This document shows, in pieces, positions 2,578-5,483 of a stretch of DNA of 64,000 bases (position 1 is the first letter of the stretch; the number at the start of each line of letters is the position of its first letter). Under the pieces are notes generated by a model, which saw nothing but the letters and a program-made list of their open reading frames with translations, ran no database searches and had not been told where the DNA came from. Source of the DNA: Opitutus sp. GAS368 (GTDB lineage Bacteria > Verrucomicrobiota > Verrucomicrobiia > Opitutales > Opitutaceae); NCBI GenBank assembly GCA_945903415.1, contig CAMDOD010000002.1, positions 474 through 64,473 on the forward strand, read 5' to 3'. The position numbers were made by a program, and so were the translations under genes.

Positions 2578-2705
2578 GTGCCTGCGATCTAGGGGCGCAC
2601 GCAAGAATGTCGCGGCAAAACCGTGCGAGGCCCGCGCCGAGCCATCCAAGGCATTTGAACCACGAAGACACAGAGGCACAGAGATCGGAGGTTCGGGATC
2701 TGCCC

Positions 2706-2832
2706 AATTTTCAGATTACCGATTTTCAATTCTCAATTTTCAATCGCTCTGGGCGAACACGCGGCGGCGTTGGTTCGCCAGAACGCGATCGGACGCGGAG
2801 ATTGAAAATTGAGAATTGAAAATCTGGAATCG
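2706..2832. repeat. AT-rich palindromic element, copy 1 (TCAAT-heptad arms around a GC-rich centre)
   Basis: Left arm gattttcaattctcaattttcaatc (2721-2745) is the perfect reverse complement of gattgaaaattgagaattgaaaatc (2800-2824). TCAAT recurs every 7 nt, three times per arm. The 54-nt GC-rich centre has its own small inverted repeat. The arms are very AT-rich against the GC-rich surrounding sequence. Confidence 0.9.
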
Positions 2833-2859
2833 CAAAGTCGGTCCCATCCACGCCCGGAC

Positions 2860-2880
2860 CCGACCGGTGGTCGGTTGACA
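2860..2880 (+). promoter_or_regulatory. Candidate vapBC operator (inverted repeat ccgacc-ggt-ggtcgg) abutting a TTGACA -35 box
   Basis: Inverted repeat at 2860-2874 lies directly next to TTGACA at 2875-2880, about 30 nt before the vapB ATG (2912). The -10 region is poor (ttacgg / attacg), so this is tentative. It would give a near-leaderless mRNA. Confidence 0.3.
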
Positions 2881-2911
2881 GGTATTACTGGGCAGAATTA
2901 CGGTAAGAACC

Positions 2912-3145
2912 ATGAAGATCACGACCAAGGGTCAGGTCACCATTCCGCAGAATCTGCGCGAGGAGTTCGGGCTGCTGCCTAATACCGACGTCGAGTTTGT
3001 GCGGGATGGCCGGGGCGGCGTGCGCCTGCAAAAATCCGCCAAAGTCGGCACCCGGGGCGCCGACCTCGTGGCGGCGTTGCGGGGCAAGTGGCGCAGCAAG
3101 CTGGGTACCGACGAGGTGATGGCCATGACCCGCGGTGAATCGTGA
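2912..3145 (+). CDS. vapB: AbrB/MazE/SpoVT-family antitoxin (VapB-like)
   Basis: 77 aa. N-terminal MKITTKGQVTIPQNLREEFGL is the classic AbrB-type swapped-hairpin signature. The stop overlaps the start of the downstream PIN gene (GTGA). Confidence 0.8.
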   Translation: MKITTKGQVTIPQNLREEFGLLPNTDVEFVRDGRGGVRLQKSAKVGTRGADLVAALRGKWRSKLGTDEVMAMTRGES

Positions 3146-3543
3146 GCACGCTGGTCGACAGCAATGTGCTCATCGACGTGCTGAGCGAGGATGCCCGCTG
3201 GTTCGAGTGGTCCGCGCAGGCGCTAGCGCGCGCCGCCGAACACGGGACCCTCGCCATCAACCCGATTATCTATGCCGAGGTGGGAATCGGTTATGCTACG
3301 CCGGCCCAGATTGACGCCGTGTTGCCCACGGATCGTTTCGCTCGGCTGGCGCTGCCCTTTGCGGCGGGCTTCGTCGCCGGGCGGGTATTTTTGACCTACC
3401 GACGCCGCGATGGCGCGCGTCAGTCGCCACTGCCGGATTTCTACATCGGAGCGCACGCGCTGGTCGAGGGGCACACCTTGCTGACCCGCGACCCGGCGCG
3501 CTATCGCACTTATTTTCCCAAGCTGAAATTGATTTGTCCGTGA
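3142..3543 (+). CDS. vapC: PIN-domain ribonuclease toxin (VapC-like)
   Basis: 133 aa. LVDSNVLIDVLSED gives the first acidic PIN residue. It shows PIN-like size and layout and a later conserved TRD motif (LLTRDPARY). 4-nt overlap with vapB. Confidence 0.85.
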   Translation: MSTLVDSNVLIDVLSEDARWFEWSAQALARAAEHGTLAINPIIYAEVGIGYATPAQIDAVLPTDRFARLALPFAAGFVAGRVFLTYRRRDGARQSPLPDFYIGAHALVEGHTLLTRDPARYRTYFPKLKLICP

Positions 3544-3612
3544 ACGATGCGCCGCTGTTCAGATGAAGGTCCACCGACCTGGCCGAAAATGCAGCAACGC
3601 GGCCGGACCACC

Positions 3613-3731
3613 AATTTCAGATTAGCGATTTTCAATTTTCAATCTGCAGTCGGCGGACGCGCCACGGCGCAACCGCGCAGGGAGGGCGCGCGGACCATCA
3701 TTGAAAATTGAGAATTGAAAATCTGGAATCG
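3613..3731. repeat. AT-rich palindromic element, copy 2
   Basis: Right arm attgaaaattgagaattgaaaatctggaatcg (3700-3731) is identical to copy 1 (2801-2832). The left arm (3627-3644) carries only two TCAAT heptads, so one heptad is missing. The 55-nt centre shows no similarity by eye to the centre of copy 1. Same orientation as copy 1. Confidence 0.9.
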
Positions 3732-3839
3732 TGAATCGGCAAATGGCTCGGATCGTCCCAGCGCCGCTCTCGCGCAGCGTCGCCGGTCGCCGCTTCCCTT
3801 GACCACCGGCGCTCCCTTTGGCATCGGTTGGGCACCCCG

Positions 3840-5483
3840 ATGTCGACTCGTTTATTCCGAGGATTCCGTTGGTTCGCGCGCAGGTGCGCGATCGGACTCG
3901 GCGGTTTCGGTGCAATCTTCGCCGGCGGATGCGATCGACGGGAGACGCTCGCCGATGGTGCGGCCCGGGATCAGGTGATGGTCGTGGGTAACGGGGCCGA
4001 GCCGTCGGATGTGGATCCGCAGACGATCACCGGCATCCCGGAGCGGAATATCGTCGTGACGCTTTTCGAGGGGCTCACGCGCGTCGATCCCGAGACCCTG
4101 GAACCCCGGCCGGGCGCGGCGGAGCGTTGGGACGTCTCCGCCGATGGGCTGCGTTATACGTTTCACCTGCGTCGCGGGCTCCAGTGGTCGGATGGCACGC
4201 CGCTCAACGTCCATGATTTCATCGCGTCGTTCCGGCGGATGCTCGCCCCGGAGTTGGGCTCCGACAATGCCGACAATCTTTACTACGTCGTCAACGCGGA
4301 GGCGTTTCACCAAGGCAAATTGAGCGACTTCGATCAGGTGGGATTCCGCGCCGTGGATGATCACACGTTGGAGGTTCGGCTCCGCCATCCGACGCCCTTT
4401 CTGCTCAAGACCATGGCGGCGCGTTCCTGGTTTCCGGTGCCGCGGCATGTGATCGTCCGCAATGGCGATCCGTACCGGCCGGGCAACCGCTGGACGTTGC
4501 CGGGGCAGCATGTCGGCAACGGTCCGTTTGTGATGCAGGACTGGAAACCGAATGTGCACCTCGAGGTGCGGCGGAGCCCGACGTACTGGAATCGCGACGC
4601 GGTCCGGCTGGGCGGCGTCCGGTTTGTGCCGATGGAAAGCCAGCCGGCGGAGGAGGCCGCGTTTCGGGCGGGTCAGTTGCACAAGACCTCGCGCGTGCCG
4701 ATCAACAAAATCTCCGTTTACCAACGCGAGGCGCCGGAGAAGATCCATGTGCATCCGTACTCTGGGGTCTATTTTTTCAACTTCAACGTGAAGCGCCCGC
4801 CCTTCGATGACGTGCGGGTGCGGCGGGCGCTCGCTCTCGCGGTGGACCGGCCGAGTATCGTCCGCAATGTGGCGCGCGGCGGAGAAACGCCGGCCTATCA
4901 CTTCGTCCCCGCGGGCCTCGGGGGCTATGTCAGTACGTCACTGACGCGGCTCGACTACGATGTCGCCCGGAAGCTGCTGGCGGAGGCGGGTTATCCCGGG
5001 GGCCGGGGGTTGGCGCCGATTACCCTGCTCTACAACACGGCGGACAATCATCGCGCGATCGCGGAGGCGCTGCAGCAGACTTGGAAGGTCGAGTTGGGGA
5101 TCAACGTCCGCTTGGAGAATCAGGAGTGGAAGGTGTACCTGGACACGATGCACACGCAGAACTACCAGCTCTGCCGGGCCGGTTTGATCGTGGAGCCCTA
5201 CGATCCTTCGCAATTTCTGCGGGTGTTCATGACCACCGACGGATTCAACCGCACGGGTTGGTCGAATCCCGAATACGACCGGCTCTACGGGGAGATTATG
5301 CAGACGGTGGATCAGCCCCGCCGGCTCGCGCTGCTCCAGCGGATGGAGGCGATCCTGATGGATGAGATGCCGATCCTGCCGGTGTATTTTGTCGCGAACC
5401 AATATTTGATGGATCCGCGAATCCGCGGCTGGGCGGACAACCTGCTCGCGCTCGGGCCCTACGAGCGGGCCTGGATTGAGTAG
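3840..5483 (+). CDS. ABC transporter substrate-binding protein, family 5 (oligopeptide/dipeptide-type), lipoprotein
   Basis: Lipobox FAGGC after a signal peptide. SBP_bac_5-like blocks: LFEGLTRVDPETLEPRPGAAERWDVSADGLRYTFHLRRGLQWSDG and PYSGVYFFNFNVKRPPFDDVRVRRAL. No permease or ATPase genes are adjacent. Start taken at ATG 3840. Confidence 0.85.
   Translation: MSTRLFRGFRWFARRCAIGLGGFGAIFAGGCDRRETLADGAARDQVMVVGNGAEPSDVDPQTITGIPERNIVVTLFEGLTRVDPETLEPRPGAAERWDVSADGLRYTFHLRRGLQWSDGTPLNVHDFIASFRRMLAPELGSDNADNLYYVVNAEAFHQGKLSDFDQVGFRAVDDHTLEVRLRHPTPFLLKTMAARSWFPVPRHVIVRNGDPYRPGNRWTLPGQHVGNGPFVMQDWKPNVHLEVRRSPTYWNRDAVRLGGVRFVPMESQPAEEAAFRAGQLHKTSRVPINKISVYQREAPEKIHVHPYSGVYFFNFNVKRPPFDDVRVRRALALAVDRPSIVRNVARGGETPAYHFVPAGLGGYVSTSLTRLDYDVARKLLAEAGYPGGRGLAPITLLYNTADNHRAIAEALQQTWKVELGINVRLENQEWKVYLDTMHTQNYQLCRAGLIVEPYDPSQFLRVFMTTDGFNRTGWSNPEYDRLYGEIMQTVDQPRRLALLQRMEAILMDEMPILPVYFVANQYLMDPRIRGWADNLLALGPYERAWIE

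Follow-up and report, generated by a model that had tools for sequence, protein, structure and literature searches.

A 64,000-nucleotide stretch of the Opitutus sp. GAS368 contig CAMDOD010000002.1 (Opitutaceae), referred to here as the window, carries a toxin-antitoxin (TA) gene pair, vapBC, that lies between two palindromic elements whose AT-rich arms are built from TCAAT/ATTGA heptads (Table 1). A sequence-only reading of this DNA had taken the two elements for a previously undescribed type of site that delimits a mobilisable cassette or, failing that, for operator or iteron arrays. By comparing the locus with relatives and the heptads with those of other bacteria, metagenomes and phages, we arrive at another interpretation, in which the elements are most fittingly placed with the known intergenic heptanucleotide arrays and inverted pairs, of which they form a new, AT-rich, verrucomicrobial member, and do not make up a new cassette-delimiting site.

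Two heptad-built palindromes beside vapBC

Element 1 occupies the divergent spacer between the start of a 2-hydroxyacid dehydrogenase gene (GTG 2577, minus strand) and vapB, and element 2 lies between the vapC stop codon and the start of a gene for a lipoprotein of the SBP_bac_5 family. Both are intergenic, between called genes, and measure about 130-150 bp overall. The original description of two elements in the same orientation on either side of vapBC holds, with the full extents given in Table 1, as do the distances of 80 and 70 nt to the TA genes: 80 nt separate the end of right arm 1 from the vapB ATG (2912), and about 68-70 nt separate the vapC stop (3543) from left arm 2.

Table 1. Positions in the window of the two palindromic elements, their parts and the TA genes between them (TRF, Tandem Repeats Finder).
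Feature	Position	Strand	Description	Remarks
Element 1	2696..2849		T-first palindrome in full (TCAAT arm, then centre, then ATTGA arm)	inverted repeat I1
Left arm 1	2704..2745	+		TRF period 7, 5.6 copies at 2705-2744
Centre 1	2746..2799		54 nt, GC 0.70, two local hairpins	resembles no other centre
Right arm 1	2800..2849	+	GATTGAAAATTGAGAATTGAAAATCTGGAATCG then decayed heptads	TRF 3.3 copies at 2801-2823
vapBC promoter/operator block (putative)	2875..2911	+	TTGACAGGTATTAC-N10-TACGGTAAGAACC, directly before vapB ATG	identical in L258-L268
vapB antitoxin	2912..3145	+	77 aa, AbrB/MazE fold	PF04014, E = 9e-9
vapC PIN-domain toxin	3142..3543	+	133 aa	PF01850, E = 5.5e-9
Element 2	3611..3746		palindrome in full, with the left/right polarity of element 1	inverted repeats I3 and I6
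Left arm 2	3611..3645	+	CCAATTTCAGATTAGCGATTTTCAATTTTCAATCT, one heptad fewer than left arm 1	family D2, 87% to arm 1
Centre 2	3646..3699		54 nt, GC 0.80, no relation to centre 1	one A/C single-nucleotide polymorphism in population
Right arm 2	3700..3746	+	family D1	TRF 3.3 copies at 3700-3722

The 50-nt arms of element 1 (2696-2745 and 2800-2849) are 82% complementary across 54 intervening nucleotides, and at their core lie the exact 25-nt reverse complements noticed at the outset (2721-2745 and 2800-2824), each holding three TCAAT/ATTGA units at a 7-nt period. Left arm 1 can be read as six heptads that decay outward (CCAATTT TCAGATT ACCGATT TTCAATT CTCAATT TTCAATC), while left arm 2, with 2.3 copies at 3628-3643 by TRF, is indeed one heptad short. 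The 7-nt bulge that had been deduced from this shortening is not required, because a stem built from repeats can pair in a shifted register. The right arms of the two elements are 100% identical over 32 nt (2801-2832 and 3700-3731; direct-repeat family D1), again in agreement with the first description. So, too, is the base composition, the arms having a GC content of 0.24-0.27 against ~0.65 for the window. Every arm, when read outward, has a TGA in each of the three frames, right arm 1 included.

The centres are as dissimilar as had been stated, although both are GC-rich and 54 nt long. Their alignment scores (z = 2.0 forward and 1.8 as reverse complement) lie only ~2 standard deviations over shuffles, a value that is also typical of every other pair of these GC-rich centres. 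Folded as DNA, both elements form long hairpins, of -44.9 kcal/mol for element 1 (z = -7.2) and -31.9 kcal/mol for element 2 (z = -3.8); the centres contribute no conserved structure to them. The ends of each element are terminal inverted repeats of 25-50 nt, as in MITEs (miniature inverted-repeat transposable elements).

The elements exceed chance. A 24-nt arm sequence matches the window three times and 100 shuffles not once, and a pattern fitting all four arms gives four matches in the window and none in shuffles. Period-7 arrays of at least 2.3 copies are confined to these elements across the 64 kb, with one further period-7 row of 2.1 copies.

The vapBC module and its locus in relatives

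VapC has homologues of up to 99% identity, and all homologous cassettes keep the motif TTGACAGGTATTAC-N10-TACGGTAAGAAyC immediately 5' of the vapB ATG, so that promoter and operator come with the cassette itself. The block at 2875-2911 is probably this promoter together with a VapB operator, with a leaderless or near-leaderless start. When the window is aligned with L258, homology ends just inside the right arm of element 1. Five other gene contexts hold vapBC homologues that are 73-89% identical; we found no ATTGA arrays in them, and all five retain the TTGACAGGTATTAC...TACGGTAAGAA block. A role of the arms as operators for VapB or VapBC was rejected on these grounds, the arrays not travelling with the cassette, and VapB is excluded as the arm binder by the operator that the cassette retains and by the lack of arrays around it in other contexts. 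Nor is the suggestion supported that the heptads are operator or iteron arrays, since the conserved block accompanies the cassette regardless of the arrays, and ATTGARA arrays at large follow no orientation rule.

In the close homologues of the pair (L258-L268), an overlapping TIR-domain gene follows almost always, its product being either a TIR_2 fragment of 81-143 aa or a TIR-TPR protein of ~1120 aa. The window vapBC has no TIR gene, element 2 beginning 68 nt past its end, and to judge from these gene neighbourhoods it seems to be what is left of a three-gene vapB-vapC-TIR module, possibly one with a role in defence. Upstream of an 89%-identical VapC, L258 (1686-1790) carries a palindrome of another heptad, (AACGCTC)5.6, a 45-nt spacer and (TTGAGCG)3, whose units happen to match the integron core consensus RYYYAAC / GTTRRRY.

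Two relatives show the same neighbourhood without the TA pair. In L252, which holds an orthologue of the dehydrogenase at 68% identity, the dehydrogenase gene and the SBP gene are direct neighbours that diverge from a spacer free of vapBC and of heptad arrays; in the P0008 contig, known from its gene table only, the order epimerase - 346-aa protein - X - dehydrogenase is kept without vapBC. As vapBC, and in L252 both elements as well, are missing from this neighbourhood, the block of ~1.05 kb is lineage-specific. An alignment of the outer spacers of the window with the L252 spacer gave no significant match (z ~1), and the junctions of element 1-vapBC-element 2 cannot be mapped because the spacers are too diverged. 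The idea that 2706-3731 is an insertion is thus upheld as to the absence of the block from two relatives, and not as to clean boundaries, which these spacers do not define.

Within the population, ten contigs carry an identical VapC, and both elements are present in 10/10; apparent differences in length come from runs of N and from gene calling. Several of these metagenome assemblies (L124, L125, L126 and L128) stop or hold N-gaps exactly at the heptad arms, which implies that the repeats disturb short-read assembly. At the dehydrogenase gene ends of relatives, a solo (GATTTTC)4 array stands just past the stop codon in L252 (4054-4081) and in L253 (1169-1196), at a position comparable to that of a full palindrome in L251; arrays come and go at one end or the other of this gene.

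Elsewhere in the window the genes are those of an ordinary core chromosome (topA, lpxK, pgi, ilvD, scpB, pheA, uvrA and dinB among them). The SBP_bac_5 protein (window 3828-3978) has the lipoprotein signal MSTRLFRGFRWFARRCAIGLGGFGAIFAGGC, which suggests that the true start is the ATG at 3841 and not 3828, as in the open reading frame (ORF) list, or 3978, as given by the gene caller. Several PSCyt/PSD (DUF1585-1595) 'planctomycete cytochrome' proteins and one HXXSHH protein are encoded at 1-1210 and 10.9-16.2 kb; such proteins are typical of genomes of the PVC superphylum and agree with the Opitutaceae assignment.

Sister elements and heptad arrays elsewhere

Two further elements, in L251 and L135, have the same arms and the same left/right polarity as those of the window, and together with them define a subfamily with the left arm CCAATTnnAGATTAsCGATTTTCAAT and the right arm ATTGAAAATTGAGAATTGAAAATCnnnAATCg. 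The L251 element lies between the 3' end of the dehydrogenase orthologue and an oxidoreductase gene, and the L135 element between two other genes at an unrelated locus. Their centres, of 55 and 52 nt, are unrelated, and across the four subfamily centres no significant similarity was seen (|z| at most 2.6). Solo arms with the extended sequence occur in other contigs too, including one in L165, an unrelated contig, that is identical to the window right arm at 33/33 positions; conserved polar arms of ~35-45 nt were found in all in the window, L135, L251, L165 and L164. Aligned, the arms show heptads that decay and shuffle in phase (ATCTGGA, ATCGsTA, ATCTGAA, ATTGGGG), as slippage would give, and by eye the right arm faces a gene start in 4/4 subfamily members.

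Both sister elements are single, with no cassette between copies. Elements without an intervening cassette thus exist, which the sequence-only reading had itself named as evidence against its proposal, and the claim that the palindromes delimit a mobilisable cassette is not supported, given this, the homologous vapBC pairs that have no ATTGA arrays, and the lack of attC cores and of a recombinase among the genes checked. The same reading was right that these are not ordinary MITEs, as four members have four unrelated centres and no target-site duplication above chance. In L135, a small minus-strand ORF ~130 nt to the left of the element reads '...TIKDQRLNLRFHQKQTALAKA...'; by eye it resembles a ribbon-helix-helix antitoxin, and would then be a second possible TA gene adjacent to an element.

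No recombinase, integrase or transposase was present among the genes with Pfam hits near the locus or the 28 larger ORFs across the window, so the earlier remark that none lies nearby stands for the genes checked. Neither element matches the attC core sites RYYYAAC / GTTRRRY. Extrahelical bases of the attC type are absent from copy 1, which has a perfect 25-bp stem, and the asymmetry of copy 2 is a whole-heptad difference. As for an attC array or IntI, the 64 kb hold only the two elements, and no recombinase is among the checked genes. Over 1260 boundary combinations, the search for a target-site duplication returned only 4-5-mers at chance level. The GTAG/CGTC heads of repetitive extragenic palindromes (REPs) are absent at the element ends, the elements being 130-150 bp in length and not palindromes of 20-40 bp; no REP-associated tyrosine transposase (RAYT) was found among the checked window genes, the rest of the genome not having been searched for one. 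A BLAST search of element 1 against the PLSDB plasmids gave no match, although the low-complexity filter probably masks the arms.

At the level of transcripts, a terminator scan found nothing at either element. There is no U-tract after the stem because in the window the U-rich arm is 5' and the A-rich arm 3'; in other genomes (L120, L057) many pairs are A-first, and their succession of A-rich arm, GC hairpin and U-rich arm resembles bidirectional terminators. Rfam 15 gave no match at the gathering threshold, and at permissive thresholds the window and seven related loci matched only generic miRNA hairpins, ~70 bits or more below threshold. The centre as a structured RNA was rejected, its folding scores being z = -2.7 and -0.7 with no shared structure, as was a promoter TTGAAA-N17-TGGAAT reading outward from the arms, for which the consensus scan accepts only one weak minus-strand site; sigma-70-like matches in the arms are weak only.

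A scan for (ATTGARA)3 was carried out with one genome per species. It found the array in at least 120 genome contigs, with hosts that include Prevotella and other Bacteroidota, Acidobacteriota (Thermoanaerobaculia, Blastocatellia), Cyanobacteria, Planctomycetota, Victivallis, Chloroflexota, phyla of the candidate phyla radiation (CPR), Desulfobacterota and others. In metagenomes, at least 120 contigs contain a stricter pattern that fits each of the four window arms and takes in the first decayed heptad. In viral contigs (ATTGARA)3 is found at least 120 times, against 47, 70 and 28 for three composition-matched permuted heptads; ATTGARA is enriched over permuted heptads there, yet it is not unique. 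Among the matches listed, ~100/124 arm-pattern matches are solo (the 124 including the four window arms and one L251 arm), the paired arrays come in both possible orders with gaps of 0-120 nt, and 38 ATTGA-type inverted pairs lie in other contigs.

These arrays occupy short spacers beside unrelated genes, where the upstream gene often takes its stop codon from them ('...IEN*') or an ATG follows a few bases further on, and in bacteria and phages alike they are frequently at 0-12 nt from a start codon. Scored from the reading side, 37 arrays point toward a gene start and 45 toward a gene end, which is no bias, and a role in 5' untranslated regions like that of TAACTGA was rejected as the orientation of ATTGARA to its flanking genes is unbiased. 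Five viral contigs with a GC content of 0.58 (L334, L270, L297, L328 and L289) have (ATTGAGA)3-10 next to nearly every start codon, on one strand; phage groups differ, with the TCAAT orientation before the ATG in one and the ATTGA orientation in another. The lack of a preferred orientation and the use of either one by phages speak against an RNA signal tied to one strand, such as has been proposed for TAACTGA.

The 7-nt period extends beyond this unit. In 51 GC-rich contigs (L004-L258), where no other period exceeds 12 arrays, period 7 has 80, with many units (AGTCCTG, ATTGCGG, AACGCTC, CTACCCG and others) and 13 inverted pairs that have the same unit in both arms, the units being various; about half of the neighbouring arrays in these contigs are unit-matched inverted pairs. 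Likewise, when the query unit is left out, the first 120 loci of the genome listing hold 59 exact period-7 repeats against 1-12 for each of the periods 4-12.

Origin and possible roles of the elements

At a rough probability of 0.55, we favour the reading that the elements belong to a slippage-driven family of intergenic heptanucleotide repeats without a cassette-specific role. Each arm is a short tandem array of ATTGARA that decays outward to ATCNGGA, ATCGNTA or ATTGNNN, an instance of the long simple repeats that are greatly in excess between the genes of many bacteria and their phages. Replication slippage in a 7-nt register would lengthen, shorten and reshuffle such arrays, and inverted arrays may be kept complementary through intrastrand template switching or gene conversion, giving a hairpin or cruciform element of ~130-150 bp. 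The elements would reside in intergenic DNA outside the vapBC module, one in the spacer on each side, and vapBC itself would be a small lineage-specific insertion with its own promoter. Likely effects would be those of AT-rich, structure-forming punctuation that sets outward stop codons in all frames, and transcript ends may be stabilised, or read-through hindered, by the strong hairpin. No sequence comparison shows the elements to move or to control vapBC. Most of the features by which long simple sequence repeats (SSRs) of this class are recognised are present: about three or more head-to-tail units (at least 3.3 copies in three arms, 2.3 in left arm 2), an intergenic position, recurrence at at least 120 genome loci, and inverted pairs.

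The short tandemly repeated repetitive (STRR) sequences of Calothrix are cyanobacterial heptamer repeats. Operators of the omega repressor (of the omega-epsilon-zeta operon of pSM19035) and plasmid iterons are contiguous 7-bp units, direct or inverted, that are bound cooperatively beside a TA operon; such arrays overlap the promoters they regulate and travel with the operon, whereas ATTGA arrays are missing from homologous vapBC cassettes and adjoin unrelated genes. Integron attC sites, such as the VCRs that flank TA cassettes of chromosomal integrons, are similar in that a small TA cassette has directly oriented imperfect palindromes of ~120 bp on both sides, each variable at the centre and conserved at the ends. 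The elements differ from them in having neither R''/R' cores nor an integrase among the genes checked, in the lack of extrahelical bases in copy 1, in numbering only two sites, and in occurring elsewhere as single copies without a cassette. With palindromic repeats of the REP/BIME (bacterial interspersed mosaic element) and MITE types, such as REP, ERIC and Correia, they share the form of small, multi-copy, intergenic, hairpin-forming palindromes that sometimes affect transcript ends. Copies of REPs and MITEs are, however, similar throughout, and MITEs have target-site duplications, where the elements here have unrelated centres and no duplication; REPs have GTAG/CGTC heads and a RAYT transposase, and such heads are not seen in the elements.

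The closest likeness is to known heptanucleotide arrays. A literature search for literal ATTGARA strings returned only chance matches in eukaryotic papers. The GGGAATC arrays of Xanthomonas and the GGGGAYT arrays of Nostoc are likewise tandem 7-nt units in about 3-14 copies, and the Xanthomonas arrays are ~90% intergenic in genomes of 65% GC, on either strand relative to genes (PMC4692102). Each Xanthomonas genome has 70-75 convergent inverted GGGAATC array pairs for which stem-loops or cruciforms are possible (Rehm 2015, PMC4692102), and the decayed outer heptads here (TGGAATC, GGGAATG) resemble that unit. The differences from GGGAATC and GGGGAYT are that the present unit is AT-rich, makes no G-quadruplex possible and has a verrucomicrobial host, and that the arms have a conserved left/right asymmetry and a near-constant centre of ~55 nt. 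The TAACTGA arrays of Beggiatoaceae, Cyanobacteria and Bacteroidetes, for which binding of S1, Csp or CsrA has been proposed (MacGregor 2015, PMC4679880), are similar as an AT-rich, TGA-containing, intergenic heptamer in 2-6 or more copies, often a few nt from start codons and with stops in all frames, and in a patchy cross-phylum distribution that suggests transfer. TAACTGA is strongly 'forward' upstream of start codons, with one inverted pair reported (PMC4679880), whereas ATTGARA is unbiased and often paired, and the window arms are 60-130 nt away from start codons. No class of long SSRs is more abundant than the heptanucleotides, for which polymerase slippage has been proposed (Mrazek 2007, as cited in PMC4679880 and PMC4692102); the dominant heptanucleotide periodicity is shared, but, as those two papers relay the work, long SSRs are direct tandem arrays, while here the arm sequence is conserved across loci and species. 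With the arms part of widespread intergenic arrays and inverted pairs already known for GGGAATC (PMC4692102), the claim of a previously undescribed type of site is not supported.

Several observations weigh against a purely slippage-driven origin. All four unrelated centres are 52-55 nt long, a constancy that a neutral model does not predict. The asymmetric extended arms are near-identical at non-orthologous loci of hosts whose proteins are only 60-70% identical, and such cross-species identity, not to be expected of slippage that is purely local, implies that the arms have spread or been subject to gene conversion or selection. Relative to L252, the additional DNA begins and ends exactly with the two elements. 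Heptad number showed no polymorphism in the ten population contigs where it could be read, a weak result from a small sample. The excess of ATTGARA over permuted units, finally, hints at a sequence-specific bias or function. Conservation of the arms across species and constancy of the centre length are thus unexplained by purely neutral slippage.

Among the alternatives, a non-autonomous mobile element like a MITE or REP would turn the asymmetric arms into terminal inverted repeats served by a transposase in trans, with subfamilies that differ inside and solo arms as decayed copies. The conserved polar arms of ~35-45 nt at non-orthologous loci in different species would fit this, as would the constant overall size, the absence from the L252 spacer and the breaking of assemblies at the arms. 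We nevertheless consider it unlikely, given four copies with near-identical arms and four unrelated centres, no target-site duplication above chance, no transposase among the checked window genes, and ~80% solo arrays among the matches listed; moreover, the same architecture recurs with many unrelated heptads, and a single transposase therefore cannot explain it. It is very improbable that the elements are cassette-delimiting recombination sites, whether structure-recognised as attC sites are or serving as portable homology through which an element-vapBC-element unit is excised and integrated via the arms. What the window has in addition to two relatives is exactly element 1, vapBC and element 2, and a crossover in the right arms would leave a pattern such as is seen, two directly oriented elements that share 32 nt of right arm and differ in left arm and centre; L258, too, has a heptad palindrome, of another unit, 5' of its 89%-identical VapC. 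A recent crossover cannot be deduced from the identity of the right arms, however, because that arm is the family-wide consensus and is found also in the unrelated L165. There are, besides, no attC cores, in copy 1 a perfect stem of 25 bp without bulges, neither an integrase nor another recombinase among the genes checked, single cassette-less elements in L251 and L135, five other vapBC contexts without ATTGA arrays, and intergenic DNA too diverged from L252 for junctions.

Sequence-specific binding of one protein per 7 nt, by OB folds of the cold-shock or S1 type on RNA or by omega-type repressors on DNA, would make of the palindromic pair with its fixed ~55-bp spacer a nucleoprotein site acting as an insulator, regulator or translation enhancer. 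Such binding would accommodate the excess of ATTGARA over composition-matched permutations, the conserved arms, the constant centre length, the many arrays within 0-12 nt of start codons in bacteria and phages and the right arms that face gene starts in all four members by eye, and it has a precedent in the S1/Csp/CsrA proposal for TAACTGA (PMC4679880). We find it improbable all the same, as the arrays show no preferred orientation (37 vs 45), phages place either orientation before start codons, many unrelated heptads share the architecture, VapB is excluded as the binder and sigma-70-like matches are weak only. Slighter still is the chance that the hairpin works at the transcript level, as a terminator, a processing site or a 3'-end stabiliser that insulates vapBC, a chance that we would put level with that of recombination sites. 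The predicted hairpins are very stable on both strands, and the A-first pairs of L120 and L057 resemble bidirectional terminators, but the window has the opposite arm order without a U-tract, the terminator scan is empty at both elements, Rfam offers only sub-threshold generic miRNA hairpins and the centres (z = -2.7 and -0.7) have no conserved structure. A more far-reaching version, to which we give a small chance that stays well short of the slippage reading, would have ATTGARA arrays be a functional signal shared across phyla and with phages, read by a protein in a 7-nt register or made by a dedicated mechanism, the Opitutaceae ~55-bp palindrome being a nucleoprotein or cruciform site that may serve as portable homology for vapBC-like modules.

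Heptad arrays that flank an accessory cassette are not by themselves a ground to call them recombination sites. At the level of the locus, the gain is that vapBC appears as a lineage-specific, promoter-carrying module that has lost its TIR-domain partner gene. In practice, AT-rich heptad arrays in GC-rich genomes break assemblies and yield spurious ORFs, with peptides such as '...FQFSIFN' and '...LKIEN*'. The wider phenomenon, with period-7 dominance in many phyla and in phages, unit-matched inverted pairs and ATTGARA across distant lineages, is under-studied; if the arrays were functional or made by a specific mechanism, the long-noted excess of heptanucleotide repeats in bacteria would be explained.

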